From NCBI GenBank assembly GCA_963823655.1, contig CAWGMK010000006.1, forward strand, positions 96,001 through 160,000: a stretch of DNA of 64,000 bases. The letters are read 5' to 3'. This stretch comes from an uncultured Bacillota bacterium (GTDB taxonomy: Bacteria > Bacillota > DTU025 > MWDF01). Every line of letters starts with the position of its first letter. The stretch's first letter is position 1. Shown here piece after piece: positions 8,141 through 40,121 of this stretch. Position numbers and translations under genes: made by a program. The notes beneath the pieces were generated by a model. It searched no databases. It worked only from the letters and a program-made list of their open reading frames with translations, and was not told the origin of the DNA.

Positions 8141-8221
8141 GGCGAGAAAACCGCATCATGAAGAGGCTTCGTCCTTTACAAAGAGGCTTCTTTTGATGCT
8201 ATAATTTACTTAATGACAATA

Positions 8222-8402: not shown

Positions 8403-8461
8403 TCGGGATAGCTGTTCCGCCTTCGTGGAAAAAGGGGGATGCAGGCCTAATCGGTCTATAC

Positions 8462-18939: not shown

Positions 18940-20105
18940 TGCCCGGCCTATACTTCGAGGCCTCATACTCCTCGCTTTTGAAACACGGGGAGCCCATATG
19001 CGGGGACAGGGCCGAGATAGTAAGGGCCCCGGGATCTTTGATGGCGGTGCTCTCGGACGGGCTTGGATCGGGCGTTAAGGCCTCTGTGCTGTCCACGCTT
19101 ACCACAAGGATAGCCTCCTACATGCTCAAAGAGGGCTCCAGCATAGACGAAGTCGTTGATACGGTGGGAAGGACGCTGCCAATATGCCAAGTGAGAGGCG
19201 TCGCCTATTCCACATTCTCGATAGTGCAGCTCTTCGAGGACGGCAGCGGCCACATAGTCGAGTACGACACCCCGGACGCATTCCTGTACAGGGCAGGGAC
19301 GGTTACCAAGATAGACACCGAGAAGAGGAAGGTAGCCGACAAGGAGGTCCTAGAGGGGAATTTCGAAGTCAGGGACGGCGACCACATCTTCCTGGTGACA
19401 GACGGAGTAATCCACGCGGGGCTGGGTGAAATACTGAACCTCGGCTGGCAGTGGGAGAACGTGGCGGAATACCTGAGGCGCACTGTCCCCAAGGCAAGAG
19501 GCGACAGCCTTCAGCTGGCAAGGTGGCTCACCGGCGTGTGCGACCAGTTCTATGGCGGAAAGCCGGGCGACGACACTACCGCAGTATGCATAGTGGCAAG
19601 GCAGCCCAGGTCCACAAGCGTGGCGATCGGGCCCCCCAGAAGCAAGGACCGCGACTCCGAGATGGTTAGGAAGTTCATGCAGAAGCCCGGAAGAAAGGTC
19701 ATCTGCGGAGGAGCCACCAGCAACCTTTTCGCTAGGGAGCTTGGTTGCGAAGTGGAAGTGGACCTTAACTCAGGCGGGGACGGCGTGCCGCCCATGGCCT
19801 CTATGAGGGGCATAGACCTGATAACTGAGGGGATAATAACCCTGACGAGGACCTTAGATATATTAGGCGCAGTCGACGCCGGCGAGCTGACGAAAGCCGG
19901 CATTACCGGAAGGGATGCGGCGTCGGTGCTGGCCAAGACATTGATGGAATCCGACAAGCTTGACTTCTTCATCGGGAGGGCGGAAAACGTCGCCCACACG
20001 GACGGTGCGTCGCTCGTGGACTACCGCTTCAAAGGGCAGGCGGTCGATGCGGTCGTCAGGATGATGAGGGCTTTGAACAAAGATGTAAGCGTTACATATT
20101 ATTGA
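18939..20105 (+). CDS. SpoIIE/PP2C-family Ser/Thr phosphatase (HfsC-like)
   Basis: ICGD, LSDGLGSGVKA, TDGVIHAG and GDDTT. Confidence 0.88.
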   Translation: MPGLYFEASYSSLLKHGEPICGDRAEIVRAPGSLMAVLSDGLGSGVKASVLSTLTTRIASYMLKEGSSIDEVVDTVGRTLPICQVRGVAYSTFSIVQLFEDGSGHIVEYDTPDAFLYRAGTVTKIDTEKRKVADKEVLEGNFEVRDGDHIFLVTDGVIHAGLGEILNLGWQWENVAEYLRRTVPKARGDSLQLARWLTGVCDQFYGGKPGDDTTAVCIVARQPRSTSVAIGPPRSKDRDSEMVRKFMQKPGRKVICGGATSNLFARELGCEVEVDLNSGGDGVPPMASMRGIDLITEGIITLTRTLDILGAVDAGELTKAGITGRDAASVLAKTLMESDKLDFFIGRAENVAHTDGASLVDYRFKGQAVDAVVRMMRALNKDVSVTYY

Positions 20106-20130
20106 CCCTACCAAGGAGGTATGTCTCAAA

Positions 20131-20628
20131 ATGATCCAGGACCTGAGCTCAGCGAGGAAATTCGAGAAGATCAACGGAATCATCGAGAAGAACGGGAAGA
20201 GCCAGAGCGCCCTCATCCCGATACTTCAGGCAGTACAGTCAGAATACAGGTACCTGCCCGAGGAGATTCTCACCTACATCGCAACGGCGCTGGGCATCCC
20301 GACCGCCACAGTCTTCGGGGTGGCCACATTCTATGCCCAATTCTCATTGGAGCCCAAGGGAAAGCACGTAGTAAGAGTATGCGACGGCACAGCCTGCCAC
20401 GTTAGAGGCTCGATGCCCGTATATGAGGCGATAAGGAAGAAGGTCGGCCTGAAAGACGGCAAGTTCACGACCCAGGATCTGCGGTTCACGGTCGAGACTG
20501 TCGCCTGTTTGGGAGCTTGCGGACTTGCGCCTGTGCTCATGGTAAACGACAAGGTGTACGGCCAGATGACCGCGGAGGCGGCGGAGATAATCATCGACGC
20601 CCTTCTTGGCGAGGAGGGATTGGCATGA
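20131..20628 (+). CDS. hydC: Bifurcating hydrogenase NuoE-like subunit (HydC)
   Basis: VATFYAQF, VCDGTACHVRG and ACLGACGLAPV. Confidence 0.9.
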   Translation: MIQDLSSARKFEKINGIIEKNGKSQSALIPILQAVQSEYRYLPEEILTYIATALGIPTATVFGVATFYAQFSLEPKGKHVVRVCDGTACHVRGSMPVYEAIRKKVGLKDGKFTTQDLRFTVETVACLGACGLAPVLMVNDKVYGQMTAEAAEIIIDALLGEEGLA

Positions 20629-22511
20629 AAAGGATAGCTGACGCGATTGAGCTGAACATACTCTCCGAGGAGTACAAGGCGAGGCTCACCGGCTTCACCA
20701 GAAGGGCCTTCGTGTGTGTAGGCCCCGGCTGCATACTCTCCGGCGGAAACGAAGTGTATGAGGCCCTGCATGAGGGGCTGACGGCAAGGGGCATCAACGC
20801 GGAGTTCGACGGTGCGGAGCACAAGCACGGCATGAGCGCAAACACGGTAAAGACCGGATGCCACGGCTTCTGCGACATCGGTCCCTTAGTGCGCATTGAG
20901 CCTGAGGGCATAACCTATTGCCACGTAAAGCCTGAGGATGCGGGCGAGATAATCGACAGGACCATAATCGGCGGCGAGGTGGTCGAAAGGCTTCTCTACG
21001 TCGACCCTGTGACAGGCGCTCCCATAATCCACGAGTGCGAGATCCCCTTCTACAAGAGGCAGATCAAAGTGGCGCTCTCCGGCTGCGGCAAGGTCAATGC
21101 CGAGGATATAAGGGAATATATCGCTAACGGCGGCTATAAGGCGATGGCAAAGTGCCTGACAGAAATGGCGCCGAAGCAGGTTATAGATACAGTGCTGGAG
21201 TCGGGCTTAAGAGGAAGAGGAGGCGGAGGCTTCCCCACAGGCAGGAAATGGGGCTTTGCTGCTGCTTCGAATAGCGATATTAAGTACATGATCTGCAACG
21301 GCGACGAGGGGGACCCGGGCGCGTTCATGGACCGCGCCGTTATGGAGGGAGATCCTCACAGGGTCATCGAGGGCATGGTAATTGCCGGATACTCTTTCGG
21401 GGCGCAGCACGGCTACATCTACGTGAGGGCCGAGTATCCAATAGCCATCAAGCGGCTCAGAAAGGCGATAGACCAGGCTGAGGAAATTGGGCTTCTGGGC
21501 GATGACATATTGGGCTCCGGCTTCAGCTTCCATCTTAAGATAAAAGAGGGCGCCGGCGCCTTCGTTTGCGGCGAGGAGACCGCCCTCATGGCCTCAATAG
21601 AAGGCAGGAGGGGAATGCCAAGGCCGAGGCCTCCGTTCCCTGCGGTATCAGGGCTTTTCGGAAAGCCCACGACGATAAACAACGTCGAGACGCTGGCCAA
21701 TGTGCCCGACATCATCAACAAGGGGGCTGCCTGGTTCAAATCGATGGGCATACCCACAAGCACGGGCACGAAGACATTCGCCCTTACAGGCATGGTGAAC
21801 AATACCGGCCTTATCGAAATCCCTATGGGGACGACTTTAAGGGAGATCGTTTTCGAGATAGGCGGCGGCATCAGGGGCGGCAAGAAGTTCAAGGCCGTCC
21901 AGATAGGCGGGCCCTCGGGCGGCTGCCTGACAGAGGAACACCTGGATATGCCGCTTGATTACGACTCGCTCCAGAAGGTGGGAGCCATGGTGGGCTCTGG
22001 CGGAATGGTGGTCGTAGACGAGGGAACATGCATGGTCGAGATGGCCCGCTTCTTCATGAACTTCACCCAGAACGAATCTTGCGGAAAGTGCGTGCCATGC
22101 CGCGAGGGAACGAAGAGGATGCTGGAGCTGCTCACTAAGATAACCTCGGACAAAGCCGAGCTTAAGGACCTCGAGACGCTCGAGGACATCGCTATGGTGG
22201 TGAAGGACAGCTCCCTGTGCAATTTGGGCAAGACTGCGCCAAACCCCATACTTACGACATTCAAGTACTTCAAGCACGAGTACTACTCGCACATCACTGA
22301 CAGGGAGTGCCCGGCCGGCGTGTGCAAGTCCTTCAAATACTACGTAATACTGGATGAGCTCTGTAAAGGATGCGGGAAGTGCAAGAGGTACTGCCCGGTC
22401 GATGCCATTTCGGGCGAGCCGCGGCAGATGCACCACATAGACAGGGACACATGCATAAAGTGCGGGGCCTGCCTGGAATCTTGCGCTTTCAAGGCGATAA
22501 TCATAAGGTGA
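20625..22511 (+). CDS. hydB: Bifurcating hydrogenase NuoF-like flavoprotein subunit (HydB)
   Basis: GLRGRGGGGFPTG, CNGDEGDPGAFMDR, GAFVCGEETAL and ESCGKCVPCREG; C-terminal 2x[4Fe-4S]. Confidence 0.93.
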   Translation: MKRIADAIELNILSEEYKARLTGFTRRAFVCVGPGCILSGGNEVYEALHEGLTARGINAEFDGAEHKHGMSANTVKTGCHGFCDIGPLVRIEPEGITYCHVKPEDAGEIIDRTIIGGEVVERLLYVDPVTGAPIIHECEIPFYKRQIKVALSGCGKVNAEDIREYIANGGYKAMAKCLTEMAPKQVIDTVLESGLRGRGGGGFPTGRKWGFAAASNSDIKYMICNGDEGDPGAFMDRAVMEGDPHRVIEGMVIAGYSFGAQHGYIYVRAEYPIAIKRLRKAIDQAEEIGLLGDDILGSGFSFHLKIKEGAGAFVCGEETALMASIEGRRGMPRPRPPFPAVSGLFGKPTTINNVETLANVPDIINKGAAWFKSMGIPTSTGTKTFALTGMVNNTGLIEIPMGTTLREIVFEIGGGIRGGKKFKAVQIGGPSGGCLTEEHLDMPLDYDSLQKVGAMVGSGGMVVVDEGTCMVEMARFFMNFTQNESCGKCVPCREGTKRMLELLTKITSDKAELKDLETLEDIAMVVKDSSLCNLGKTAPNPILTTFKYFKHEYYSHITDRECPAGVCKSFKYYVILDELCKGCGKCKRYCPVDAISGEPRQMHHIDRDTCIKCGACLESCAFKAIIIR

Positions 22512-22524
22512 GGAGGCAATTTCG

Positions 22525-24546
22525 ATGCCAGTTAACGGATATGTATCGGTAGACAACATCAAAGTACCCCTGGAAGGGGAGGACAGCCTCCTCAAGATAG
22601 TGCGCAAGGCGGGCATAGACCTTCCCACCTTCTGCTACCACTCCGAGCTTTCCACATACGGCGCCTGCCGCATGTGCGTAGTCGAAGTCGACAGGATGGG
22701 CGTCGTCGCCTCCTGCTCCGTGCCGCCTGCAGATGGCATGGTGGTAAGGACGAACACGGAGAGGCTCAGGAAGATAAGAAAGACCATACTTGAGCTGCTT
22801 CTGGCAAACCACGACCGCGAGTGCACGACTTGCGGAAAGTCCAGCCAGTGCAAGCTGCAGGAGCTGTCGGAGCGCTTCGCGGTGTCAACGCTCAGGTTCG
22901 GCCACGGCGACAAGAAGTACCCGATAGACTCCAGCACACCCGGCATAGTGCGCGATCCCAACAAGTGCATACTCTGCGGCGACTGCGTGAGGATGTGCGC
23001 GGAAGTGCAGGGCGTCGGCATCCTGGACTTCGCTTTCAGAGGGTCCAAGAGCATGGTGGGCCCCGCGTTCGGCAAAGAACTTGTCGACGTGGACTGCGTG
23101 CAGTGCGGGCAGTGCACTACAGTATGCCCGACCGGTGCTCTCATGGTGAAAAGCTGCACAGCAGAGGTATGGAAGGCCATAGACGACCCGAAGAAAAAGG
23201 TGATAGCCCAGATAGCCCCCGCCGTAAGGGTGGCGCTGGGAGAGGAGTTCGGCATGCAGCCGGGCTCCATCGTCACAGGCAAGATAGTGGCAGCCCTCAG
23301 AAGGCTCGGCTTCGATATGGTGTTCGACACCAGCTTCACAGCCGACCTTACTATCATAGAGGAGGGCAATGAGTTCATATCCAGGCTTAAAAGCGGCGGA
23401 GTGCTGCCGCAGTTCACATCCTGCTGCCCAGGTTGGGTGAAGTATGTAGAGCAGTACCACCCCGAGCTCATACCCAACGTCTCCTCGTGCAAATCGCCGC
23501 AGCAGATGTTCGGGTCCGTAATAAAGAAGTACCTGGCCAAGGACATGGGATGGGATCCTAAGTCGGTATCGGTTGTGTCGATAATGCCCTGCATAGCGAA
23601 GAAGTTCGAGGCCGAAAGGCCGGAATTCGCCCACGACGGGGCCAAAGACGTGGACTTCGTGCTGACGACCAGGGAACTGGCAAGGATGATCAAAGAGGCC
23701 GGCTTCAGCTGGGACGACCTTGAGGTAGAATCCTTCGATGTGCCGCTAGGGCTGGGATCAGGCGCCGGCATGATATTCGGCAACACCGGTGGGGTGACCG
23801 AGGCGGTGCTTCGCTCGGCACAGCAGCTTTTAGGCCTGGGCACCGACTCGAAGATAATATACAACGAGGTAAGAGGCCTTGAGGGGATAAAAGAGGCTTC
23901 GGTCAACCTCGACGGCATAGAGCTGAACTTAGCGGTAGCCAACTCTCTATCTGCTGCAGAGAGCCTAATCGACAGAATGAAGGCCGGCGGCAAAGCATAT
24001 CACCTGATAGAGGTAATGGCGTGTCCCGGCGGATGCATAGGCGGCGGCGGCCAACCGATAGCGTCCGAGCCCGACTTCAGGCAGAAGAGGGCCAAGGGCC
24101 TCTACGATGTGGACAAGGGCCAGATGCTAAGAAGGTCGCACGAGAACCCGTATATTACGGACCTGTATGACAGGCATCTGGGAGGAGCCAACTCTCATGA
24201 GGCACATGGTTCGCTTCACACATCCTATGGACACAGGAAGAGAATAACGGGCGGGGACATCAATGTAATGGTAAGCGAGGGCAAGCGCGAAGGCACAGTT
24301 GAAGTGGCCGTATGCCTTGGAACGTCATGTTATCTCAAGGGCAGCTACAATATAATGCACGCTCTGATGAACAGGATTTCCGAGATGGGGCTGGCCGACA
24401 GGATCAATCTGCACGGGACTTTCTGTTTCGAAAACTGCCACGAATCCCCTTGTGTGAAAGTGGACGGCAAGGTAAAGGGGTATATGGGAGAGTCGGACGT
24501 AGTAGACAGCATCATAGAGGAGAGGATACTTCCTCTTCTCGGCTGA
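22525..24546 (+). CDS. hydA: [FeFe]-hydrogenase catalytic subunit (group A3) with C-terminal [2Fe-2S] domain
   Basis: TSCCPGW, MPCIAKKFE and EVMACPGGCIGGGGQP; C-terminal VCLGTSC...FCFENC. Confidence 0.95.
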   Translation: MPVNGYVSVDNIKVPLEGEDSLLKIVRKAGIDLPTFCYHSELSTYGACRMCVVEVDRMGVVASCSVPPADGMVVRTNTERLRKIRKTILELLLANHDRECTTCGKSSQCKLQELSERFAVSTLRFGHGDKKYPIDSSTPGIVRDPNKCILCGDCVRMCAEVQGVGILDFAFRGSKSMVGPAFGKELVDVDCVQCGQCTTVCPTGALMVKSCTAEVWKAIDDPKKKVIAQIAPAVRVALGEEFGMQPGSIVTGKIVAALRRLGFDMVFDTSFTADLTIIEEGNEFISRLKSGGVLPQFTSCCPGWVKYVEQYHPELIPNVSSCKSPQQMFGSVIKKYLAKDMGWDPKSVSVVSIMPCIAKKFEAERPEFAHDGAKDVDFVLTTRELARMIKEAGFSWDDLEVESFDVPLGLGSGAGMIFGNTGGVTEAVLRSAQQLLGLGTDSKIIYNEVRGLEGIKEASVNLDGIELNLAVANSLSAAESLIDRMKAGGKAYHLIEVMACPGGCIGGGGQPIASEPDFRQKRAKGLYDVDKGQMLRRSHENPYITDLYDRHLGGANSHEAHGSLHTSYGHRKRITGGDINVMVSEGKREGTVEVAVCLGTSCYLKGSYNIMHALMNRISEMGLADRINLHGTFCFENCHESPCVKVDGKVKGYMGESDVVDSIIEERILPLLG

Positions 24547-24638: not shown

Positions 24639-26302
24639 TTGGAGGAGACACAAACCCTTTCGGTGAAGTTCTTTACGGGGGATCCACCCAGGATGAGCAG
24701 AACGAGCATCTTTATTACAAGAAGGCTGATTTCGGGCGGCCTTGTGGCAGCCCTTCTTTTCCTGATTCTCCTTGGGCAGGCGCTGGGCGCAACCATCTAC
24801 TGGGCAGTTGCAGCGTCCCATACTGATTTCTCGAAAGCCTCGGACGAGGCGGCTAGAATCGGGGCCGAGACTGGCCTCGCCTGTTCGACAATGGAGGCGG
24901 ATGTAAAGGGAATCAGATATTACCGCGCCGTTGCAGGGCCTTTCGACTCGAAGGCGATTGCTGAGGCTGCGAGGGACGCCTTGAGGTCCAAAGGCTGGGC
25001 GGATGCATGGTTGCTGACCGATACGATTGCGGCACAGAATGCGCCTGAGCCCTCGACCTATGCGGACCCGGAGGCCGTCTTGCCTTTTGAAAGGACAATC
25101 AAAGTGGGCCTTTCGTGGCTTTCGGGGGCGAGCTTCCTTACGGGCACCGACGGTAAGCTTATAGTCTCTGGAACGCTACTTGAGACTGGCGAGGCGGCGA
25201 TAGTCGAAATCGCCAATGATCGCGAAAATCATGTCTGACGGCGATGGCATCAGAATCAAAAAAGACGATGCGGACGTCGGGGTGCTATTCGCGTCCCCGG
25301 TGATAATGAGCAGCAGCTCCGGGGCCCTATGGCTCTCGGACGCATACAAGGTATACAAGGGCGGGATAGAAGTGGCAAGAAGGGCGGGCGCCCCAACTCT
25401 TGCAGTGTCCAACGTAATAGATGTAGAGGATTACCTGCTATCGGTGCTCCCATCCGAAATAGGGGGCAGCTCGCCGATAGAGGCATATAAGGCGCAGGCG
25501 GTCGTCGCCAGGACGGAAGCTCTCTCTTCGGCGGGTCGTCACGCGGACACTGGCTGGGACCTTTGCGACAGCACACATTGCCAGGTATTCAAGGGATTGT
25601 ACGGACAATCGGCAAATGTTGAGATTGCAAGGGCGGTCAAAGCTACCGAGGGGGAAGTGCTCACTTATGAGGGCGAGATGGTCAAGACGGCGAGCTTCCA
25701 TTCGGCGTGCGGCGGCTGGACCGAAACCTGCGAGCAGATATGGGGCTCGAAGCTTGCCCACCTCACCAATGTGGCTGACAACCTGGTTCAACCCCAGATG
25801 CCGGATCTAAGGGACGAGACGGTGCTAAGGAAATATATCGAGACTGAGAACAAGAATGACCTCTGCTACAAGGCCTATGGCTACAGATGGAGCGCCGAAA
25901 TCGAGATGAAGGACGTCCTGAACAGGCTGTCCGTTGCCATTGCCGAGGGCTTGGCCCCTGTGGGCGCTGCCGGGCAGGGCAGCAACAAACCGGCAGTTCT
26001 CGTGAGGACGGACAGGGGAGCCGCGTTGCAGATAAGCGTGCCATCAAACGGCCAGGAATATATAATAAAGGGTGAGCTGAACGTAAGGAAGCTGCTTGGT
26101 GGGGCGACCGTTATAAAAAGCGGCGTCTTCGTAATACTTCCCGGCAGCAAGGAAGGCTCAATGAAGATAATCGGTGCAGGTTATGGCCATGGCGTCGGAA
26201 TGTGCCAGGAAGGCGCGAAGGCAATGGCGAAGCTGGGCAAGGACTATAAGGCAGATTCTCGCCCATTATTACAGGGGAAGCGCAATCGGCGGGCTCTACT
26301 AG
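24639..26302 (+). CDS. SPOR-domain + SpoIID/LytB lytic transglycosylase-like protein (apparent frameshifts ~25225 and ~26250)
   Basis: SPOR-like YRAVAGPFDSKAIAEAARDAL; SpoIID VEDYLLSVLPSEI, EAYKAQAVVART, DLCDSTHCQVF and GYGHGVGMCQEGA; repaired end QILAHYY...TAG at 26300-26302. Confidence 0.85.
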
Positions 26303-26322
26303 GCCCGGCGTTCGGGGGATAA

Positions 26323-27815: not shown

Positions 27816-27854
27816 AAACCGCCCTACAAATATGCTATTCACGGGGGTGCATCA

Positions 27855-30800
27855 ATGAGGCGCTTGCTTCCGCTTACTATCGTTATTGCCCTGCTGTTAA
27901 CAATTCCCAACGCCGCTTCGGCCAAGCTCACGCTAACAGGCGAGAGCATATGGAGGCTCGGCTACGGAAGCAGGTATTATTCCACATACGGCTGGAAGCT
28001 CGGGCTTGGCGGTTTCCTTGCCTCTCAGGAGATCAGGCTGGATGTTACCGGCGAGATCATCGACGGCCTGTTCCTGGAAGCCCATATCGACAACACCAAA
28101 GGGGATCTATTCCAGCAGCTGGTCGTAAGCCTGGACTGGAGAGGGCTATGGGCAAAAGGCGGCAATATCGTATATGAGCCTGCCAACGCGCTGCTTAGCA
28201 GGCCGAAAACTGCGATCATGGGCATTTCGGCAGGTTTTAAAGGCGAGAAGTTCGCGGCCTTCGCAATCGGCGGCATATCGTCCGGCAGCAAAGGCAGCAA
28301 AGTCTTCAAAGGCGCAACGGCGCAGGAGTCCATAGAATATGTGTCGGGCGGCCCGTACCTGCCTTCCAGGGGCAAATCCGGCCTTCAGGGTGCGCTAGAA
28401 GGCTTATGGCAGTCGGCGACCGGCGCCGAGTTCGACCCCGCCTTCGACAAAGGAGGAGCCCTCTTTGCAGAAAGCTCCTCGTACGGTGAGCTTTCGGACT
28501 TCCTCGGAGCAAATTCGCTGGGATTCCTGGTCAATGGGGCGGCGAACCCGGACGGGACGCTAACTGCCGGGGAATTTGTAAACGGCGCCGGCGTCGACGG
28601 CTTGTCGGGTGTAAGCGGAGCATATATCGTCCTGAAGGAGCTGCCCCAGGCAATCATAAGGGGTATGCTTGTTGATCTAATAAGGCAATACAACGAGAAT
28701 TTAGGGCTTTCCGGGGGCGCGGCAGCCAAGTATCCGTACATCGCAGGAAGCCAGACCGATACCGAGTTCCTTTCCAGCCTGCTTGAAGGCTGGGTAAGCT
28801 TTGCGACCGCTTCCAAGGCAACAGGGGAAGTCATCGCATCGGCCCCATTCACGGCCTTTTCCAGGGGGCTCATCTATCCGCTCGGGTTCACAGACGTGCT
28901 TGCGGACACTCTCACGGTGACTGCGGTAGCTCTGACAGGCACGCAGATACCCCTTATCGCGGTCCCGGGCGCCAACTGGGTCTGCTATGAGGACAGGGGC
29001 TATATCGAAATGGTCCTTCCGGTTGATTTCACCGCCACCTACTCATATATCAGGGCAGCCTTCAGCTACAGGCTGGCACAGGGGCTCTATTTCCTGGGCG
29101 GCGGCATAATCAGGGGAAGCCTGTCTGTAAGGCTCGACGGCAAGCTTCTATATGCGGGGACCGATTACGAGATAGATTACGAGACCGGCATACTTATGCT
29201 CATGGTAACTGCTTCAGACGGGGCAGAGGGGCTGCTGGAGGTTGAATACGAGTTCGCAAAGCCGGGGTCGAAGGCATGGATTGCGGCCGTCGGCGCCTCA
29301 TATTCGCCGGCTAATGATCTGAAGATATCTTTAGAGTACAGCTACGGCTCGGATGCACCATACCTTGCCGAGGACGAGACGACGGTCTCCAGGGAAAGAA
29401 GCTATGAGCATCTGATTGCCGCCTGGGCGGATTGGCGCCTGGCAGATGGGCTGAAACTGTCCGCAGGCGCGTCATTTAGCGCTTCGGTTTTCCCGGGCGA
29501 CTCGTCGCTGAGGGATAACGACTACAACAGGATAAGGTATATCGAAGCACTCGAGGACAACGCAGGGGGCATATGGTGGGCGTTCGCCCATTCGGCAGGT
29601 GTTAGGGTCCTCTCCCCGTACGGTGGAGGATGGTCCGATCTGAGGATGCCCGGCTCATTTGCAGGGGTCCCGGTAAACGGCGCATCACACGACTCGGGCA
29701 TATGGTATTTCGCGACTGACGCGGGGCTTGCCATGCTAGATGCCGACTATATCGGATACGGCGAGGGCTTTGCCGATGTGGTATCGCTTTGGAAGACGGC
29801 AGGGACCAAGGACGGCCTTCCCAGCCGCCTGATTTCGTCAGTCTCAATTAGCATGGGCTCGCTTTTTGCGGGGACTCCGGTAGGACTAGTCGAAGGCCAG
29901 CTGGACCTTGAAGGTCCCTGGACGCTTCACAGGGGCTCAGAGCATCCTGAACTTGGAGACGGCGTTATCTCAGGGCTTGCTCCAATTGCCTCCGGATTGC
30001 TTATCTCCTGCGGTGATTCGATTGCCTATTACGACGGGCTTGTCTTCCAGCAGATATTAGCCGAAGGGGCTCAATCTTTGAAATCGGCCCAGCTGGATAG
30101 CGGCTTGTCGGCGGTCGCTGCCACAGAGAACGGCGCAATTGTAATCGGACCGGCACTCGAAATTGAAAGGATCGGCTCAGGCAGGCATCTCACATCGGCG
30201 GCCGGCTCGGGCGTCTTCGTATTCTATACCTCTGAAGACGGGCTCTTCGCCTATGATCTGGACGGCGAAATAGAAGTCGCGCTGCATTCGGGCTCGGCGA
30301 TGGAGGCCGTCGGCACTGACGGCATCGATATATACGCGGGCGGCATGGCTGACGAGCTTTACGCCATAACTCTGCTCAGGCTCGACTACCCGGCAGGCGA
30401 GATACAGGAGATCGGGCAGCTCGAACACGGCATAAACGGCAGGGACAGGGCCCATTACCTAATAAAGGACCCGTCTGAGAACACTGCAATCGGCGCCGGC
30501 GGCTACATCTCACTTGGATACGATTCCTCGGCATTCGACGCTGAGGCTGTCCTTAAGGCCAGGGGGGCGGGAAGCCTGGCCGGCATGGGGCCGGGTAAGG
30601 CGGATTCTGCTTCTGCGTCCTTGAAGCTCGTATGGAAGCCGACGGGGACCCTTTCGGTCAATTTCCTGGAAATCTTGGAATTGAATAAGCTCTTCAGTTA
30701 CGTCAAAACAGAGGAGCCGATGGTGCTTTCCAACACAGTGCAAGCTGGCCTTGGCTGGAACGGGCCCGTCACGCTTAACCTGCTTACCAGCTATATAGTG

Positions 30801-31883
30801 AGCAAGGGCTTCGGAGAATTCGCCCTGCCATTGAACCAGACTGTGAGCGGCAGCGCCAATCTGCAGTACAGTATAGGCCCGTTGAGGCTTGCCGGCTCAC
30901 TAAGCGCCTCATACAGGCTTGCCGAAGGTTTCGATCCCTATGCCTCGGCAGGGGCGACGGCTGCGCTCTATTTGCAGGCAGGAAAGAATACGTCGATTAG
31001 CCTAAGCTATGGTGAACCCAAACCGTTCGGATCCCTGCTTGCGCCGTCCGGCAATTACAGGTCGCTTGCAGGCAACATACGATATTCGGCATACATGACC
31101 TACGGCAGCCTTACGGCATCTGCCAGGGGAAGCTACAAGTGGGACGTCAGGAACGTCGCGGATACCGCGGATTTAAGCGCAAGCCTCATCTATGCTGCAA
31201 GGCAGATAAAGCTGTTCGGCGCAAGCTTCATTCCCAGGACCGAGCTGACCCTCTCCTACCTGATGCCATTGGGGGCGGACAGCAGGATATCGGCCTTTAC
31301 GAAGCTGTCGGCAGGTACTAGCATCGGAATCTTCGGCATGGACGCAAGCTATTGGCACAAACTGACCTATATGATCGAATCCGGAAGGCTGACCAACGCA
31401 GGCGAGGCGTCGATTACGGGCTATCTCAGCAAGGCCGGCTGGAAGCTCAGGCCCTCATTGCAGCTGGGGGCGGCTTATACTCTGGAAACTCCGAACATGG
31501 GGGAGACGGCGGGTACTTGGAAGGCAAGCGCGAAGTTTTCCCTGTCCAGCGCGGGCACCGTTCCCAACCTGGCGTCGGCGAGCTACGCATACAGCAGCTT
31601 AAAAGGCGGCAGGCACGATATCGGCCTGTCCGATTCATTTAGTTTCAGCATGCTGGAGGGAAGGCTCGGCTTCGGCGCTGGGGTAAACGCCAATATGGGG
31701 CTTCTGCCACTTAGCCTCGCCTCATCCTCATACAAGGCGGCAATTAACGCCAGCATAAGCTACAAGTTCGACAAGAGCTGGTCGGGAAGCCTGCTGGGCG
31801 AAGTCGGGCTGGGTTCATCTGCCCTTTATGATGATCCTAAGCTGCTGTACGGCTTTGAGTTGAAAATTACACTGAAGTTCTAG
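27855..31883 (+). CDS. Large secreted outer-membrane beta-barrel-like protein with SprA-like segments and internal beta-propeller-like region
   Basis: Signal peptide (..NAASA); alternating beta-strand pattern at N- and C-termini; terminal YGFELKITLKF; GSLSVRLDGKLLYAGTDYEIDYETG motif. Confidence 0.7.
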   Translation: MRRLLPLTIVIALLLTIPNAASAKLTLTGESIWRLGYGSRYYSTYGWKLGLGGFLASQEIRLDVTGEIIDGLFLEAHIDNTKGDLFQQLVVSLDWRGLWAKGGNIVYEPANALLSRPKTAIMGISAGFKGEKFAAFAIGGISSGSKGSKVFKGATAQESIEYVSGGPYLPSRGKSGLQGALEGLWQSATGAEFDPAFDKGGALFAESSSYGELSDFLGANSLGFLVNGAANPDGTLTAGEFVNGAGVDGLSGVSGAYIVLKELPQAIIRGMLVDLIRQYNENLGLSGGAAAKYPYIAGSQTDTEFLSSLLEGWVSFATASKATGEVIASAPFTAFSRGLIYPLGFTDVLADTLTVTAVALTGTQIPLIAVPGANWVCYEDRGYIEMVLPVDFTATYSYIRAAFSYRLAQGLYFLGGGIIRGSLSVRLDGKLLYAGTDYEIDYETGILMLMVTASDGAEGLLEVEYEFAKPGSKAWIAAVGASYSPANDLKISLEYSYGSDAPYLAEDETTVSRERSYEHLIAAWADWRLADGLKLSAGASFSASVFPGDSSLRDNDYNRIRYIEALEDNAGGIWWAFAHSAGVRVLSPYGGGWSDLRMPGSFAGVPVNGASHDSGIWYFATDAGLAMLDADYIGYGEGFADVVSLWKTAGTKDGLPSRLISSVSISMGSLFAGTPVGLVEGQLDLEGPWTLHRGSEHPELGDGVISGLAPIASGLLISCGDSIAYYDGLVFQQILAEGAQSLKSAQLDSGLSAVAATENGAIVIGPALEIERIGSGRHLTSAAGSGVFVFYTSEDGLFAYDLDGEIEVALHSGSAMEAVGTDGIDIYAGGMADELYAITLLRLDYPAGEIQEIGQLEHGINGRDRAHYLIKDPSENTAIGAGGYISLGYDSSAFDAEAVLKARGAGSLAGMGPGKADSASASLKLVWKPTGTLSVNFLEILELNKLFSYVKTEEPMVLSNTVQAGLGWNGPVTLNLLTSYIVSKGFGEFALPLNQTVSGSANLQYSIGPLRLAGSLSASYRLAEGFDPYASAGATAALYLQAGKNTSISLSYGEPKPFGSLLAPSGNYRSLAGNIRYSAYMTYGSLTASARGSYKWDVRNVADTADLSASLIYAARQIKLFGASFIPRTELTLSYLMPLGADSRISAFTKLSAGTSIGIFGMDASYWHKLTYMIESGRLTNAGEASITGYLSKAGWKLRPSLQLGAAYTLETPNMGETAGTWKASAKFSLSSAGTVPNLASASYAYSSLKGGRHDIGLSDSFSFSMLEGRLGFGAGVNANMGLLPLSLASSSYKAAINASISYKFDKSWSGSLLGEVGLGSSALYDDPKLLYGFELKITLKF

Positions 31884-31890
31884 CTGAGGG

Positions 31891-31916
31891 CAAGGCGGGC
31901 AGTAGCGCCCGCCTTG
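31891..31916 (+). terminator. Stem-loop / terminator
   Basis: caaggcgggc-agtagc-gcccgccttg. Confidence 0.6.
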
Positions 31917-32136: not shown

Positions 32137-32464
32137 TTGCTTAAGCAAGCCCTTGACGTACTGAAAAAAGCGGAAACCGATGCAGAACTTACGGTAGCTT
32201 CCGCTAAGAAACGTTCCACCGAGATTCGCAACTAAGGCCGAAGAGGAAAAGGCGGAGTTAATCAGCAAATCGATAGCAGCCGCAAAGGCAGAAGCCCTCG
32301 CGGTCGCATCAAGATATGAGGCCGAGGCGGATTCGATCAAGGCCGATTCGGAACGCAAGTCGGTTGAGGAGGCAAAGCTTATCGAAAAGGCAGCTGCCGC
32401 CAACCGGACGAAAGCGCTCAATAAGGCAGTCGAGAGGATAGTGAGACGTAATGGCCATCGCTGA
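32137..32464 (+). CDS. V/A-type ATPase subunit G/H (apparent frameshift ~32225; missing from ORF track)
   Basis: GGAGG RBS and TTG start; LKQALDVLKKAETDAE...AEEEKAELI..NRTKALNKAVERIV coiled coil, first gene of the operon. Confidence 0.7.
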
Positions 32465-34431
32465 GATGCTCAGAGTGGCCGTTGTAGGCCTCACCGATGA
32501 CGCCGATAAAACTTCCGAGATTCTGCAAAAGCATGGCTGTGTCCAGATCGAGGCGATAACCGAGGAGGGCCATACAAAAAGGCTGTCCGACGGCACCAAC
32601 CTCCAGGACAGGGCGATGAAGGCGGAGGAGCTGGCAATTGACCTGAAGGCTGCGCTTGACTTTATGGACAGGCAGAAGCAGGTCAAGAAGGGAATGCTCG
32701 ATACCTTCATTGGATGGCATTACAGAATTGGCGAGGATGAGTACCTTAAACACGTAGCAGGCGGCGAGACGCGCGCCCGCGAGATTTCGGAGCTGGCCAG
32801 GCAGTCCGAGGGCCTTCTCAATAATATTGCCAATGAAATCAAAGCCATCGATTCCAAAGTCGAGGCTTTGCGTCCATGGACTTCCATAGAGATCCCCACG
32901 GCGGATTTCCTGCGGCTTAAGCACCACTCCTTCTATTTCCTTTCGGCAGACGCAGTGAAGGGCCTGAAAAGCCTCGATGAAGCGCTCAAAGGGCTTGAAG
33001 AACCGGCTGCCTACCAGGAGCTTTCAAGAGACGACAGGAAGGTATATGGCATAATCGCCGTAAACAAGGCCGACGCCCAGAAGTGCCTGCAGCTGCTCGC
33101 CCAGGAGGGCTATGACGCCGCGGAGATGATGGATTCGACGCTTCCGCCTGCAATGGAGATAAAGAAGCTTGAAGGCAGGAAGGCGGAGCTTCTAAAAGCC
33201 CAGGAGACGGCGAAGCAGGGTGCTCTGAAGCTTTGCGACCTGAGGCCGGAGGCGTTCAGCCTATATGATCATTACGCCAATGAAAAGACCCGCTACGAGA
33301 CCGCGGGCGGCTTTCTTGCCACAGAAACATCCTTCGCGCTAGAAGGATGGGTGAGGAAGGACCTTCTCCAGGGGCTCCAGAAGGAACTTGGCCAGAAAGT
33401 GGCCTCCGCCGTTGTAATCAGCCGCAAGCCTGAAGAAGGCGAGGACGTCCCGGTAGACCTCATCAACAAAGGGATCTTCAGCCCGTTCGAGTCGGTTACA
33501 AGGATCATGGGCCTTCCCAGGCAGGGAAGCGTAGATCCGACGCCTCTTCTTGCGGTTTTCTTCTTCATTTACTTCGGCACATGCATGGGCGATGCGATTT
33601 ATGGGATTATAATGACGGCGCTGGGCTCTATACCTGCTCAAGAAGATCAAGACCGCAGGCATGGGAACGCAGCTGCTGCAGCTCTTAGTCGTGGGCGGCA
33701 TCGCGACCATTTTGATGGGAGTGCTGTTCGGCGGCTACTTCGGAGACCTGTTCATAAAGTATCTGAAGCCGTTGTGGTTCGACCCGATGAGCCCCAATGG
33801 CCCGCTACTCTTCCTGGGCTTCTCCTTTGGAATGGGCGTAGTGCAGATATTCTTCGGAATGGGCATCAAGGCCTGGGACAACGCACGCAACGGCAGATGG
33901 CTCTCCGCAATATACGACCAGGGCTTCTGGGTGGTGCTTCTGCTGGGAGTTGGGCTTCTAATCGGCGGAGGGGCTCTTGGTCCCGGATACTCAACAATAG
34001 GCAAATGGTTGTCAATAGCGGGCGCCGCAGGGCTGGTGCTGACTCAGGGCAGGCACCATAAGAACCCGGTCATGAAGCTGGGCGGCGGAATTGTAGGCTT
34101 ATACAACATCACTTCCTACATGAGCGACGTCGTGTCCTATTCGAGGCTTTTCGGCCTCGGTTTCACAAGTATCGTTATCGGCATGGTCATCAACTACATG
34201 GCCAAGATGGTGCTCGAAATACCCATCGTGGGATACGTCCTGTTCGTTGTGATACTCGTATTCGGGCACATGTTCAACCTCTTCATCAACATAACCGGCG
34301 CTTTCATACACTCCTCAAGGCTTCAGTATGTTGAGTTCTTCGGCAAGTTCGCCGATTTCGGCGGCACGAAGTACTCGCCGTTCCGAAAGTTCAACAAGTA
34401 TGTAGATATAGACTTCAAGGAGGCAAAATAA
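32451..34431 (+). CDS. ntpI: V/A-type ATPase subunit I (apparent frameshift ~33630)
   Basis: EGWV, VDPTP, GDAIYG, SDVVSYSRLFGLG and HSSRLQYVEFFGKF. Confidence 0.92.
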
Positions 34432-34432
34432 G

Positions 34433-34902
34433 ATGACTGACGGAACCGTTCTCACACTTCTGGCGATCGCTATCGCAGTAGGCCTTCCGGGCTGCGGATC
34501 TTCCTATCGGAGTTGGCCTTGTGGGCCAGGCAGGCTCGGGCGTCGTATCTGAGGACCCAGACAAATTCGGACAGATCCTGCTTCTGCAAATCGTCCCGGG
34601 AACACAGGGTATCTACGGAGTACTGGCGGGCCTCATGATCATGCTGCAGAGCAGGCTTCCTCGCAGGCAACATCCCCGCGTTCACGTTGCTTGAAGGCTG
34701 GGCCTATGTAATGGCGGCCCTGCCGATAGGTCTCGTCGGCCTCGTGTCGGCAATCTATCAGGGCAAAGTCGCGGCATCCGGCGTCGGCATCATCGCGAAG
34801 AAACCCGGCGAGATGGGCAAGGCGATCCTGTTCGCCGCCATGGTCGAGACCTATGCAATCCTTTCGCTCTTGGTAAGCCTGCTGCTGATCATCAGGCTAT
34901 AG
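34433..34902 (+). CDS. ntpK: V/A-type ATPase proteolipid subunit K (frameshifted)
   Basis: EDPDKFGQILLLQIVPGTQGIYG; SAIYQGKVAA; AAMVETYAIL. Confidence 0.88.
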
Positions 34903-34921
34903 AAATCTACGGAGGCGTACC

Positions 34922-35539
34922 ATGGACAACCTCTCACCTTTGGTGAAGAAGATCATGCAAAAAGCTGAGGAAGAGGCAGCGGCCATCTTGGCTGAGGCTG
35001 AGGCTTCTGGCAAAGAAGACGGCCGAGGCCGCATCTTCGGAAGCCGGGCTGAAAGCGAAAGAGATATTGGCCAACGCCGAAGCTCTGGGCAAAGAGGCCG
35101 TAAGGCGCGCGAATGTGCAGGCGTCTATTGGCCGTCAGGAATGCCAGCCTTGCCGAGAAGGGCAAAAGGGTGCAGATGAATACTCGAGAGCCTTCCGGCG
35201 AAGCTCCATTCCCTGAACGACAAGGACTACGCGACCATGATGAGAGGCTTCGTGCTTTCGGTGGCGCCTCTGGGCCTGGTGCACGTGCTGCCGGCCCCCA
35301 AGGATAAGGAGGTCTTCAACTCGGCCTTCGTTAGCGGGATGAATGAGGTATTGCAGGGCAGGGGCCAGGATACCACTCTCATACTCACGGGCGACGACGC
35401 CGATATCGAAGGCGGGCTCCTCCTCAAGGGGGATAACGTCTCCGTGGACTGCTCATTGCTTTCGATATGCGAGTATTACGGCGAAGAGCTTGAGCCTATA
35501 GTCTCGGCCGCACTTTTCTCGGACGAACCGAACCGTTAA
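34922..35539 (+). CDS. ntpE: V/A-type ATPase subunit E (frameshifted)
   Basis: KIMQKAEEEA N-terminal helix; C-terminal DIEGGLLL...VDCS. Confidence 0.75.
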
Positions 35540-35545
35540 GGGGTT

Positions 35546-36626
35546 TTGCAGATGGAGAACATCGGAACCTATGCATATGCAGTAGGAAGGGTGAAAGCCC
35601 TCGAGTCCAGGCTGCTCGACTCCTCAAGCATGCAGAGGATGATCGACGCGCCCAACTTCGACGAGGCCATGCGGTTCCTTGCGGATAGCGAATACTCCGG
35701 AAGGATACAGAAGCTGAGCTTCGAGGGGGCATTGAACGCGTCAGTGAAGCAGGTAAATGAGATCATGGCGTCATTCTCGCCGATCCGTACTTCACGGGCA
35801 TGTTCTATGCCGAGTACGATTTCATAAGGCTGAAGGCATTCCTTAAGGCTGCTTTCATGAAGTCGGCAGGGCTGCAGGCCGTTCTAGGGGAGGCGCCGGA
35901 GCTTGGTTTCTTGCCGGTAAGCCGGATCGAGGAGATAGCCATTCGGGCATCATCGGCCGGCGAGGGCAAAGATCCATTCGGGAGGCGCCATGCCGGGGGC
36001 TGAGGAGAAGAAGCTAAAGGATGAAGAGGCGCTCATTTCGGCATTGGTCAAGGCCGCAAGCCTTGCTTGTGCGAACTTCAGGAAGTCAGGGGACGATCCT
36101 CTTGAGATCGATTCGGCAGTGGACGCCGCCTTCTTCTCATACATCTCCGAGATAGCGTCGTCCAGGTCGGCCCAGTGGGCGCAGAGTATAGTCGCCGCCA
36201 AGGCTGACATGGCCAACATGCTCTGGTGATGAGGGCGCCGCCGCAGGCAAGGATGCGCTTTTCGTGAAGTCCTCCCTTGTAAGCGGGGGACGTATGGAGA
36301 AAGCCGCTTTCCTGGAGGCTGCAAAAGAGGGCGAGGGCAGGCTGAGGCGAGCCCTTGAGGCCAGCCCATACTGCAGGGCGATTGGGGCCGCTTTCGAGCT
36401 TTGGGCGAAGGACGGGGCGCTGAGGCCTTTCGAGATGGCAGCCGACGCATACGTCTACTCGCTGGCAAAAGAGGCGAAGTCGATGACCGACGGCTATGCC
36501 CCTGTGATGGGATATCTTCTTATGAAGCAGCAGGAGGCATCTATGCTGAGGCGGATCCTGGCTGGCAAGGCCAAGGCGCTGGCGCCGTCTTTCATACGCG
36601 AGAGGTTGAGTGACGGGAATGCATAA
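35546..36626 (+). CDS. ntpC: V/A-type ATPase subunit C (frameshifted)
   Basis: YAYAVGRVKALESRLL; C-terminal PVMGYL...LRRILAGK...IRERL. Confidence 0.8.
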
Positions 36627-36951
36627 GATGGCAGTAATCGGAGACGCGTCGTCTATTGCAGGCTTCGTGGCCTTGGGGCTTACGGTAATGCCTGCAGCGG
36701 ATGCTGCCGAGGCGACCTCCCTTCTAAAGAAGGCCGCCGACACAGGACACGCAGTGATTTTCATAACGGAGGGATACGCGGCGGGCATGCTGGATGCTAT
36801 TGCAGCATATGCCAAGAAACCGCTGCCTATAGTGCTCTCCATTCCGGACAATGAAGGAAATGCCGGAGCGGCTTTGGCAAAGCTGAGGCGCACGGTTGAG
36901 AAGGCGCTCGGCGCCGATATACTCTTCGGGAAAGAAGGTACTGGCCAGTGA
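36619..36951 (+). CDS. V/A-type ATPase subunit F
   Basis: KMAVIGD..SIAGF, IFITE, IP and VEKALGADI. Confidence 0.9.
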   Translation: MHKMAVIGDASSIAGFVALGLTVMPAADAAEATSLLKKAADTGHAVIFITEGYAAGMLDAIAAYAKKPLPIVLSIPDNEGNAGAALAKLRRTVEKALGADILFGKEGTGQ

Positions 36952-38737
36952 GCACTGACATGCTAGTAGGCAGGATAACCAAGGTAAGCGGCCCCCTCGT
37001 AGTTGCGGAGGGCATGGCCGGAGCCAAGATGTACGACGTCGTAAGGGTCTCGGACAAGAGGCTTGTCGGCGAGATCATCGAGATGAGGGCGGACAAGGCC
37101 TCCATACAGGTCTATGAGGAGACCTTCGGCCTGGGCCCCGGAGAGCCGGTATTCTCGACAGGAGAGCCCCTTTCGGTAGAGCTGGGCCCCGGGCTTATCA
37201 GCTCGATCTACGACGGCATCCAGCGTCCGCTGCAGAAGATATACGAGAAGGAAGGGGACAGGATCACGCGCGGCGTCGAGGCCAACGGCCTTGACCACGA
37301 GCACAAGTGGGCCTTCTCCCCGGCAGTCAAGCCCGGCGACTTCGTCAAGGGCGGAGATATCATCGGCAAGGTGGAGGAGACCAAAGTAGTCGAGCACAGG
37401 GTCATGGTGCCTCACGGGCTTGCGGGCACTGTTGTCTCGGTCGAAAACGGCGAATTCACAATCGATGAGACGGTGGCCGTCATAAAAGACGATGCAGGGT
37501 GAGCTGCATAACGTGGCTATGCTGCAGCGCTGGCCCGTACGAAAAGGCAGGCCCGTACGGGCAGAAGCTCTCGCCTGACCAGCCTATGACCTCCGGCCAG
37601 AGGGTAATCGATACCTTCTTCCCGGTTGCAAAGGGCGGCACCGCATGCGTTCCCGGACCTTTCGGCTCGGGCAAGACGGTAGTGCAGCATCAGCTGGCCA
37701 AGTGGGCGGACGCGGACATAATAGTCTACGTCGGCTGCGGTGAGCGCGGCAATGAGATGACGGACGTGCTCATGGAGTTCCCGCACCTTATGGACCCGAA
37801 GAGCGGCGAGTCCCTGATGAAGAGGACAGTGCTTATTGCCAACACTTCGGACATGCCTGTTGCGGCAAGGGAATCTTCCGTTTACACAGGAATAACAATA
37901 GCCGAGTACTTCCGCGACATGGGCTACTCCGTTGCCCTTATGGCGGACTCGACGAGCCGCTGGGCTGAGGCCCTGAGGGAGATGTCAGGAAGGTTGGAGG
38001 AGATGCCCGGCGAAGAGGGCTACCCCGCCTACCTGGGCAGCAGGGCTGGCGGAGTTCTATGAGAGGGCAGGCAGGGTCAAGTGCCTCTGCAGCGGCGATC
38101 GTGAAGGCTTCCTCACAGTTATAGGAGCGGTAAGCCCCGCAGGCGGCGACCTATCTGAGCCTGTCACCCAGGCGACACTAGGATAGTGAAGGTCTTCTGG
38201 AGCCTCGAGGCAAGCCTGGCATATGCCAGACACTTCCCGGCGATAAGCTGGCTTACCAGCTATTCGCTGTATGAGGACCAGATTGCTGGATATCTCGAGA
38301 AGAGGATCGGCAAGGACTTCCTGGACATGAAGAAGGAAGCCATGAGGATACTTCAGGAGGAGGCCGAGCTATCTGAGATAGTCAGGCTGGTCGGCGTCGA
38401 CTCCCTTGGTCCCATGGACAGGATAACGCTGGAGACCGCGAAGACCATAAGGGAAGACTATCTGCATCAGAACGCATTCCACGAAGTGGACACATATACA
38501 TCCCTCGACAAGCAGAAGGCGATGCTTTCCGTAATCCTGGGCCAGGACAAGCAGATGAGGCGCGGCGCCGACGCGGGCGTTGAGCTGGAGAGGCTGCTGT
38601 CCATAAAGACCCGCGAGAAGGTCGGCCGCATGAAGTACATCGAGGAGAAGGATATCAACAAGATCAGCGCCATTGAGGAAGAGACGGCCGCACAGGTGGC
38701 AGCCCTTATGGCCGAGGGTGGTGAGCAGAATGCTTAA
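36948..38737 (+). CDS. ntpA: V/A-type ATPase catalytic subunit A (frameshifted)
   Basis: [45 protein letters not shown] and LHQNAF. Confidence 0.95.
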
Positions 38738-40121
38738 AGAATACAGGACCATTAAGGAGATCGTCGGCCCGCTGATGCTCGTAGAGATGGTCGAAGGCGT
38801 CAAGTACGGCGAACTGGTGGAAATCAGGCAGGCAGGGCGGAGAAGTCCGCCGCGGGCGCGTGCTGGAGAGCAACGGGGACAATGCATTGGTGCAGCTGTT
38901 TGAAGGCTCATCGGGCATAGACCTCACAAGCGCGACCGTAAGGTTCCTCGGCCACGGCATTGAGCTTGGCGTGTCGATGGACATGCTCGGCAGGATATTC
39001 AGCGGCATGGGCAAGCCCAGGGACAACGGCCCGCATATCATCCCCGAGAAGCGCATGGACATCAACGGGCTGCCGATGAACCCCTACGCCAGGGACTACC
39101 CATCGGAGTTCATCCAGACAGGTATTTCCGCGATTGACGGCCTGAATACGCTCGTGCGCGGCCAGAAGCTCCCCATATTCTCGGGCTCCGGCCTTCCGCA
39201 CTCGCAGCTCGCGGCCCAGATCGCAAGGCAGGCGAAGGTTTTGAGCTCCGGCGAGAACTTCGCCGTCGTGTTTGCCGCCATGGGCATCACGTTCGAAGAG
39301 GCCGACTTCTTCATCAAGGACTTCCAGAGAACGGGCGCCATCGAAAGGGCGGTCCTGTTCATCAACCTCGCCAACGACCCGGCCATCGAGAGGATCGCAA
39401 CGCCCAGGATGGCGCTGACAGCCGCCGAGTATCTGGCATATGAGAAGGACATGCACGTGCTGGTCATAATGACTGACATGACCAACTACTGCCGAAGCCC
39501 TGCGAGAAATATCCGCCGCCAGGAAAGAGGTCCCCGGCAGGCGCGGCTATCCCGGCTATCTGTACACCGACCTTGCGACACTGTATGAGCGGGCCGGCAG
39601 GATTAAGGGCCGCAAAGGCTCAATAACCCAGATACCGATACTATCGATGCCCGAAGACGACAAGACCCATCCGATACCGGACCTTACCGGCTATATCACG
39701 GAAGGCCAGATAGTCCTGTCCCGCGAGCTTCACAGGAAGGGCATCTATCCGCCTGTGGATACGTCTGCCGTCGCTTTCCAGGCTTAAGGACAAGGGCATA
39801 GGCAAGGGCAAGACGCGCGAAGACCACGCCGACACGATGAACCAGCTTTACGCGGCATATGCTCGCGGCAAAGAGGCCAAGGAGCTGGCAGTAATCCTAG
39901 GCGAGGCTGCGCTGTCCCCGGCAGACAGGGTATTTGCGAAGTTCGCGGACGAATTCGAGCGCAGATACGTCGCCCAGGGAGTCTATGAGGACCGCACCGT
40001 ATTCGAGACCCTTAGCATCGGCTGGGAGCTTCTCTCGATGCTTCCAAAATCCGAGCTCAAGAGGGTTCGCGAGGAATATATCGCGAAGTACATGCCGACT
40101 TCGGGCGGAGGCTCGAACTAG
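38730..40121 (+). CDS. ntpB: V/A-type ATPase subunit B (frameshifted)
   Basis: [32 protein letters not shown] and TDMTNY. Confidence 0.95.

Follow-up and report, generated by a model that had tools for sequence, protein, structure and literature searches.

Does a protein-export system related to type IX secretion exist outside the bacteria for which that system has been described? The question is raised by a stretch of 64,000 nucleotides, the window of this analysis, from an uncultured Bacillota bacterium (assembly GCA_963823655.1, contig CAWGMK010000006.1, positions 96,001 to 160,000 of the forward strand). At 27855..31883 (+) it contains an open reading frame (ORF) of 1342 amino acids (aa) plus stop, with exact boundaries, which we call Z, as we do its product. 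A reading of the letters alone, referred to here as the sequence-only reading, had described Z as an outer-membrane protein outside Bacteroidota with two N-terminal segments resembling SprA (Sov), the giant beta-barrel of the system for type IX secretion (T9SS), and with an inserted beta-propeller. Two further genes and their products are named X, a protease with a C-terminal domain (CTD) for sorting, and Y, a barrel of the PorV/PorQ family. Z, Y and the tail of X each have a homologue among the three central components of the T9SS translocon cycle, and their genes form a conserved operon. Judged by these sequence relationships, Z is probably a compact translocon of the T9SS type that works without a motor.

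T9SS is described as restricted to Bacteroidota or to the Fibrobacteres-Chlorobi-Bacteroidetes (FCB) group in four reviews reaching to October 2026 (PMC13721041, PMC4793230, PMC7906972, PMC7463736), the first of which, a 2026 review, confines it to one phylum; the same restriction is stated in PMC11611037 and PMC8564354. Neither for Firmicutes nor for any other phylum outside the FCB group did we find a published account of systems resembling SprA or T9SS, subscription-only papers lying outside the scope of this search.

The Z family and its relation to SprA

Using a word-indexed search we identified seven relatives of Z with 49-57% identity, all of 1330-1341 aa, plus one with 27%. An exhaustive phmmer search of 1.84 billion representatives revealed 87 family members at E<=1e-3, 74 at <=1e-10 and 21 at <=1e-30, mostly with lengths of 1260-1460 aa. 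No Pfam or NCBIfam model covers the family, and Z as a single sequence matches nothing in Pfam or PDB. In the family alignment of 56 rows, named A1, conserved blocks are spread over the N-terminal 860 residues, and conservation in the C-terminal third is loose. A C-terminal Phe is present in 48 of the 56 aligned members, and 49 of 56 show the alternating pattern of hydrophobic residues at four or more of the positions -1, -3, -5, -7 and -9. The full-length conservation, the size of the family and the shared C-terminal pattern, together with the SprA match and the profile-level propeller described below, indicate that the features of Z are more than chance. Five of the ten clusters looked up in public records contain a named member: clusters 4, 7, 9 and 10 bear the label "hypothetical protein", and cluster 5 is labeled "two-component regulator propeller domain-containing protein". 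The organism labels, borne by clusters 4, 7 and 9, are Firmicutes/Bacillota bacterium, Candidatus Bipolaricaulota bacterium and Candidatus Acetothermia bacterium.

Comparison of A1 with all PDB sequences identified SprA (6h3i_A and 6h3j_A, E 7.2e-14) in two colinear stretches, with profile positions 35-152 corresponding to SprA 142-264 (28.6 bits) and positions 408-524 to SprA 695-807 (24.9 bits). An independent profile, A9, comprises the N-terminal 560 aa only and takes its sequences from the window and 13 genomic loci; its sole PDB matches at E<=1 were the two SprA entries (E 5.1e-10). The same profile, compared with 5.8 billion clustered proteins (1226-3500 aa), gave 14 matches, namely eight family members and six other proteins of 2337-2463 aa (E 5.2e-9 to 1.8e-5); all six carry Pfam SprA_N (PF14349) and four are named SprA by a source. 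When A1 was aligned by hhalign with the alignment of these six proteins, a single block of 428 columns was obtained (92.6%, E 4.6e-7), in which family positions 61-523 correspond to SprA positions 185-775. In the reciprocal direction, 32 of 35 members match TIGR04189 at E<=0.01, the best at 1.7e-10. The SprA motif has the form Y.LG.S...GS..V.LNG..L..G.DY.IDYE.G.L.L…VEYE; in Z the segment YFLGGG...EVEYE occupies aa 412-466 (nucleotides 29088-29252). The similarity between Z and SprA is confined to residues ~50-545, and a search with the whole-family alignment for longer relatives of 2563-5000 aa, a range that excludes the size of SprA, found none.

On the strength of these profile comparisons, the N-terminal ~500 residues of Z are homologous to the N-terminal part of SprA/Sov. 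The sequence-only reading had made its case depend on significant profile similarity to SprA. The matches in PDB, among the 5.8 billion proteins and by hhalign are both significant and specific, and the SprA resemblance first noted in the two N-terminal segments is confirmed. It had also proposed a weaker, earlier copy of the motif (aa ~337-388). This copy received weak support from an hhalign comparison of family sub-alignments (27%, E 6.8e-4, 44 columns in register), but it is suggestive at most.

Z shows the signature of a BamA-dependent barrel, which consists of a signal peptide (read in the translation as MRRLLPLTIVIALLLTIPNAASA, then K), a C-terminal aromatic beta-signal and a BamA in the host. 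The ORF, the signal peptide, the C-terminus FELKITLKF and the position of the motif segment are all as first noted. A crude periodicity scan, which gives no true strand count, found ~24 amphipathic strand-like segments in aa 865-1342, ~7 in aa 24-165, ~4 after the motif and four weak ones in the span of the propeller. In total this crude count gives ~33-37 segments for Z; SprA itself forms a 36-strand transmembrane barrel that has an extracellular cap and a lateral opening. Z is best described as a distant, half-length relative of SprA and a putative outer-membrane barrel. Like SprA/Sov of Flavobacterium johnsoniae (PDB 6H3I/6H3J/8GL6; TIGR04189; PF14349), Z has a Sec signal, an outer-membrane signature and a colinear stretch of ~500 N-terminal residues, and it is genetically coupled to a PorV-family barrel and to CTD-tagged cargo. 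It differs from SprA in being about half as long and in its C-terminal 480 aa, which are without SprA similarity.

The central repeats, first described as propeller-like, turned out at profile level to be a beta-propeller of the Reg_prop type. The best matches were 4a2l (E 6e-38), 3ott and 3va6 (both 2.3e-30), 3v9f (6.5e-29) and PorZ 5m11 (1.1e-6). Z alone has no match to Pfam Reg_prop; the model is matched by 11 of the 29 full-length family members scanned. Reg_prop repeats are shared with the sensor propellers of Bacteroides hybrid two-component systems (4A2L, 3OTT, 3V9F) and with PorZ (5M11). The propeller of Z is a single one inside an outer-membrane protein, whereas those are tandem pairs on a kinase or on a CTD protein. 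The propeller may serve as a cap, as a plug or in glycan binding. Because its strongest profile matches are glycan-sensing propellers, a role of Z in substrate uptake has to be considered. No TonB-box, plug-domain or SusC/TonB-dependent receptor signature was found in Pfam or NCBIfam, and neither binding proteins nor permeases are among the partners of Z described below, which are CTD cargo and a barrel of the carrier type. We regard uptake as very improbable, and the "importer" named as an alternative in the sequence-only reading gains no support.

The gene partners X and Y

Analysis of ten distant loci encoding family members demonstrated that seven of them contain a contiguous X-Y-Z operon with Z as the last gene. 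In the other three, X-Y lies 8 kb upstream of Z (one locus), a CTD protease is located just downstream of Z (one locus), or neither is nearby (one locus). A putative translocon, a PorV-family carrier and CTD cargo, the combination that marks T9SS as a system, are thus encoded together. The operons with a CTD protease and a PorV/PorQ-family barrel lend strong independent support to the suggestion, made at the outset, of an envelope transport system or a SprA relative.

X is a secreted protease of 1038-2108 aa with Peptidase_S8, a fervidolysin-type prodomain and PKD; in one locus Peptidase_M6 is found instead. The alignment of its ~90-residue tail shows a sorting domain that resembles type A of T9SS (…GPNPA..v.FYy…tLyVYdvaGRlV…W.l.d..G..lAnGlYl…rLvi.R). 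A profile of 12 aligned tails had as its best PDB matches the CTDs of PorU (8.1e-7), PorZ (1.4e-3) and the T9SS substrate 8glj_D (0.025). Pfam Por_Secre_tail was found in 11 of the 12 tails, FlgD_ig in all 12 and CHU_C in seven. The tail shares with the type A CTD (TIGR04183, PF18962) the elements PNPA…, G.LY… and K/R-L-V-I-x-R in a terminal Ig-like domain. It differs in that the scores lie around the cut-off of TIGR04183 (16.8-24.7 bits, cut-off 23) and in that no PorU-type sortase that would remove the CTD was found.

Y comprises 282-350 aa, begins with a signal peptide and has Phe as its last residue. Its profile had PorV (6h3i_F, E 6e-11) as the sole meaningful match in PDB. All eight members tested match NF033709 PorV_fam (best E 5.1e-33), and the PorQ, PorV2 and PorV models are matched by 7 of 8 each. 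The likeness to the PorV/PorQ carriers (6H3I chain F; NF033709, NF033710, NF033711, NF052325) extends over the full length of the profile, including the N-terminal G.G.R..GMGGA…D…NPAG, and it includes the genetic arrangement, since the gene of Y adjoins the putative translocon gene and the cargo genes. Unlike PorV, which has 402 aa, Y is shorter and is present as one carrier gene per cargo gene. With one Y per cargo, the arrangement is closer to that of the cognate PorP/SprF-type carriers, which serve type B cargo, than to one shared PorV. Several cargo-carrier pairs occur in some genomes; in an array at G282:C1:30000-69999 (L054, L055), a separate Y of 292 aa comes directly after each of three giant CTD proteins (2908, >=1077 and 3217 aa); a fourth PorV-like gene (302 aa) lies nearby, with its upstream gene outside the fetched stretch.

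The sequence-only reading had stated that no other T9SS genes are in the window. This holds for the window itself, but PorV-family and CTD protease genes lie ~42 kb upstream of Z on the same contig, and the spacing is equal in a genome of the same genus. The Y orthologue of the source genome has 313 aa (contig C6:80918-81862, which equals L041:1747-2688). Directly 5' of it is the CTD-bearing end of a subtilase gene, X, at ~C6:77638-80899, and a small ORF resembling an outer-membrane protein follows Y in the same region (C6:77638-81862). The only match to Por_Secre_tail in the source genome is below threshold and corresponds to the real tail of X, the presumed cargo of Z, with Y as the presumed carrier.

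Three shorter SprA-like forms, of 803 aa (L056:9688-12099, genome G165), 1116 aa (L059:6437-9787) and 1124 aa (L060:5612-8986), contain neither the propeller nor the insert of aa 161-405. The 803-aa form has an N-terminal FlgD_ig/CHU_C-like, and hence CTD-like, domain, and its gene comes after those of a CTD protein and a Y. In the ESM Atlas the family matches its own cluster as well as a DUF6599/Reg_prop cluster (0.87) and an SprA_N cluster (0.83), which are leads only; for the insert of aa 161-405 the lead to an SprA_N cluster reaches no more than 0.83.

Host genomes, motor and sortase

The seven closest genomic loci are from metagenome-assembled genomes titled Firmicutes, Bacillota or uncultured Clostridia bacterium, and the source genome (2.3 Mb, 97% complete) contains one Omp85/BamA (137 bits), so the position outside Bacteroidota was correctly assigned. 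LpxC was not found in this genome. The presence of BamA and the lack of an LpxC match point to an outer membrane apparently without classical lipopolysaccharide (LPS). In a sample of 401 genomes of the source phylum, Z was present in 20, of which 17 have the whole ORF and three a split or truncated one. BamA was detected in 100 of the 401 and Y-like genes in 68, and a comparison of the two tables showed that all 68 are BamA-positive. Every one of the 20 carriers of Z has both BamA and Y. Within the source class, 18 of 21 genomes contain Z.

The genome search for PorV, GldKLMN and CTD substrates that had been proposed as a check gave a divided result: a PorV-family gene and a CTD protease were found, but GldL, GldM and GldK were not detected. 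No match to GldM or GldL was obtained in the source genome with models that matched no control genome and hence lack a positive control, and with the same models GldM was found in none of five cassette genomes, three of them single-contig, and GldL was above the cut-off in none of the five. A candidate GldK of the source genome was rejected. It reached 71.7 bits compared with a cut-off of 350, covered model positions 246-406 only, and the same model also matches B. subtilis, Caulobacter and Methanosarcina. Of the motor and ring components GldL/M and GldK/N, therefore, the first three were not detected and GldN was not searched for. PorU, likewise searched for without a positive control, had no match in the source genome; in the five cassette genomes its model reached cargo proteins only through its CTD end (positions 961-1093).

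These results bear on the possibility that Z acts in a PorZ/PorQ-like role. Such a role could explain the match of the propeller to PorZ 5m11 (E 1.1e-6), the matches of 5 of 35 members to the PorZ NCBIfam model, and the finding that Y matches PorQ models as well as PorV models. However, the part of Z outside the propeller matches SprA and not PorQ, a PorU sortase catalytic domain turned up neither in the source genome (0 of 1) nor in the cassette genomes (0 of 5), any matches being confined to the CTD end, and the search for LpxC was negative. A separate translocon would also still be required, and none was found. We consider this role improbable, more so than the shared-module explanation discussed below.

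For a T9SS-type translocon a sequence of steps can be proposed by analogy to F. johnsoniae. There, according to PMC10994853, cargo enters the pore from the periplasm, its CTD binds loops of the carrier via the lateral opening, and the complex leaves. X would be exported by Sec, would fold in the periplasm and would then enter the pore of Z. Its CTD would be caught by loops of the Y carrier, which would be docked on Z and would protrude through a lateral opening. The X-Y complex would then leave laterally, and X would stay on the surface, held by its own carrier. That the cargo stays on its carrier is suggested by the presence of one Y per cargo gene and by the failure to detect PorU or LpxC. 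As only one CTD-bearing ORF was detected in the source genome, the system would serve a single subtilase there.

Several observations weigh against Z as a translocon of this type. One is that no motor was detected, yet in Bacteroidota substrate release needs one; in Flavobacterium the release of the carrier-cargo complex depends on the GldLM energy chain, as reported in PMC10994853. The source genome contributes further points. Its X has at least five frame changes, its Y scores 55.5 bits compared with the PorV_fam cut-off of 90, and the single CTD-bearing ORF was all that a narrow hidden Markov model detected. The frame changes in X may be assembly errors; related metagenome contigs, 90-99% identical, differ from the window by 1-bp indels. 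Z also falls short of the curated models. Z alone matches TIGR04189 at aa 417-451 with 16.2 bits (E 1.1e-3), below the curated SprA threshold (cut-off 200), and no family member reaches the curated SprA cut-offs. Pfam SprA_N was found neither in Z at E<=1 nor, at E<=1e-3, in the 32 proteins scanned, which comprise 29 full-length matches of the family search and three Z proteins from the loci. Finally, most of the putative barrel would be made up by the C-terminal 480 aa of Z, and these are without similarity to SprA (hhalign probability 0.1%); a profile of this part identified no related solved barrel in PDB (best KdgM, E 0.1).

The last point leads to an explanation in which Z shares only an N-terminal module with SprA and not the protein-conducting pore. 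Z would then be a giant structural, porin-like or receptor protein of the outer membrane, and the CTD proteases would reach the surface via their PorV-like partner or by another route. The lack of C-terminal similarity is in line with it; the coupling of Z to a carrier and CTD cargo in operons stands on the side of a transport function. We judge this explanation unlikely, although it is the strongest competitor of the translocon, which we continue to favor.

A SprA-like/PorV-like/CTD-cargo cassette in BamA-positive bacteria of the Bacillota type would extend the core of T9SS to the other side of the bacterial tree and would provide diderm Firmicutes, whose outer membranes are poorly known, with an additional route of protein export. 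It would also assign a function to a family that is labeled as hypothetical or as a two-component regulator propeller protein. As a natural minimal version, in which the pore is half-sized and neither motor nor sortase was detected, it could indicate which parts suffice for transport and what the energy input does. More tentatively, and with somewhat greater doubt than trust on our part, diderm lineages of the Bacillota type and, by database labels, Bipolaricaulota may run a self-contained three-part type-9-like unit, in which CTD cargo is combined with a PorV-like carrier of its own and with a half-size SprA that contains the propeller, without the GldLM/KN motor, PorU or LPS; the T9SS of Bacteroidota would then be the elaborated, motorized version of an older and wider core of translocon and carrier. 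If this is true, release of a carrier-cargo complex would be achievable without a proton-driven energy chain.

Features of the locus and its surroundings

The positions of the elements of Z are compiled in the table. The inverted repeat behind the stop codon was absent from the output of the terminator scan; a tRNA gene begins at 31946, 3' of Z.

Features of Z and its flanks (positions in the window; SprA numbering refers to the F. johnsoniae protein)
Feature	Position	Strand	Basis
Shine-Dalgarno-like GGGGGTG	27843..27849	+	read from sequence; 5 nt ahead of ATG
Whole ORF Z, putative SprA-like outer-membrane protein, 1342 aa	27855..31883	+	ORF plus family
Predicted signal peptide, aa 1-23 (…NAASA, then K)	27855..27923	+	motif of signal-peptidase I type
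N-terminal amphipathic strand series, aa ~35-160	27957..28334	+	homologous to SprA ~142-264; 28.6 bits, independent E-value 2.5e-6; inside the hhalign block
Conserved insert, aa ~161-405 (LLR..I..YN…YPF.GS..E..FL)	28335..29069	+	between the two SprA-like segments; hhalign aligns across it
SprA motif and the strands after it, aa ~406-545	29070..29489	+	homologous to SprA 695-808; 24.9 and 22.5 bits
Inserted beta-propeller of Reg_prop type, aa ~546-865	29490..30449	+	4a2l E 6e-38, PorZ 5m11 1.1e-6; Reg_prop Pfam in family members
C-terminal array of ~24 amphipathic strand-like segments, aa ~866-1342	30450..31880	+	crude periodicity count; ends in beta-signal-like FELKITLKF
GC-rich 10-bp inverted repeat without T run; possible transcript end	31891..31916	+	read from sequence; directly 3' of stop

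Close relatives are collinear with the window across the whole region, in the order hydrogenase, SPOR-SpoIID, GerM, DegV, Z, tRNA and V-type ATPase, and because of this general collinearity the local synteny says nothing about function. The DegV gene directly upstream of Z was considered as a conserved partner and rejected; the neighbor of ~290 aa in the distant loci is not DegV.

The genes for SPOR-SpoIID and for the V-type ATPase subunits I, A and B (24639-26322 and 32451-39588) are split into overlapping ORFs, which are single ORFs in relatives. The related metagenome contigs lack one base at 26253, 32233, 33628, 34508, 35008, 37494, 38047, 38833, 38869, 39492 and 39765 and have one extra base behind 38179. 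The split ORFs and these single-base differences point to 1-bp indel errors in the assembly. All 12 listed sites are located in SpoIID or the V-ATPase operon and none in Z, which the contigs cover without gaps in the listed pieces; 23 further sites exist beyond those listed.

On contig C10 of the source genome (111198-129218, L061) we observed a cluster of surface proteins with DUF11/DUF7507/SdrD_B repeats. Two of its ORFs, of 1594 aa and 780 aa, end in near-identical tails resembling those of outer-membrane proteins (…FYIKAMFKF and …FYLKALIKF). Of the two ORFs, one weakly matches the SprA motif of TIGR04189 and the other the profile of the Z family.

The window also contains an [FeFe]-hydrogenase cluster at 17245-24546, which comprises a HydS-like sensory hydrogenase with PAS, a SpoIIE-type phosphatase and, after these, subunits like NuoE/NuoF together with the catalytic subunit of what is probably a bifurcating hydrogenase. 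A tRNA-Sec gene is located at 2054-2144 and a cobalamin riboswitch at 8218-8415.

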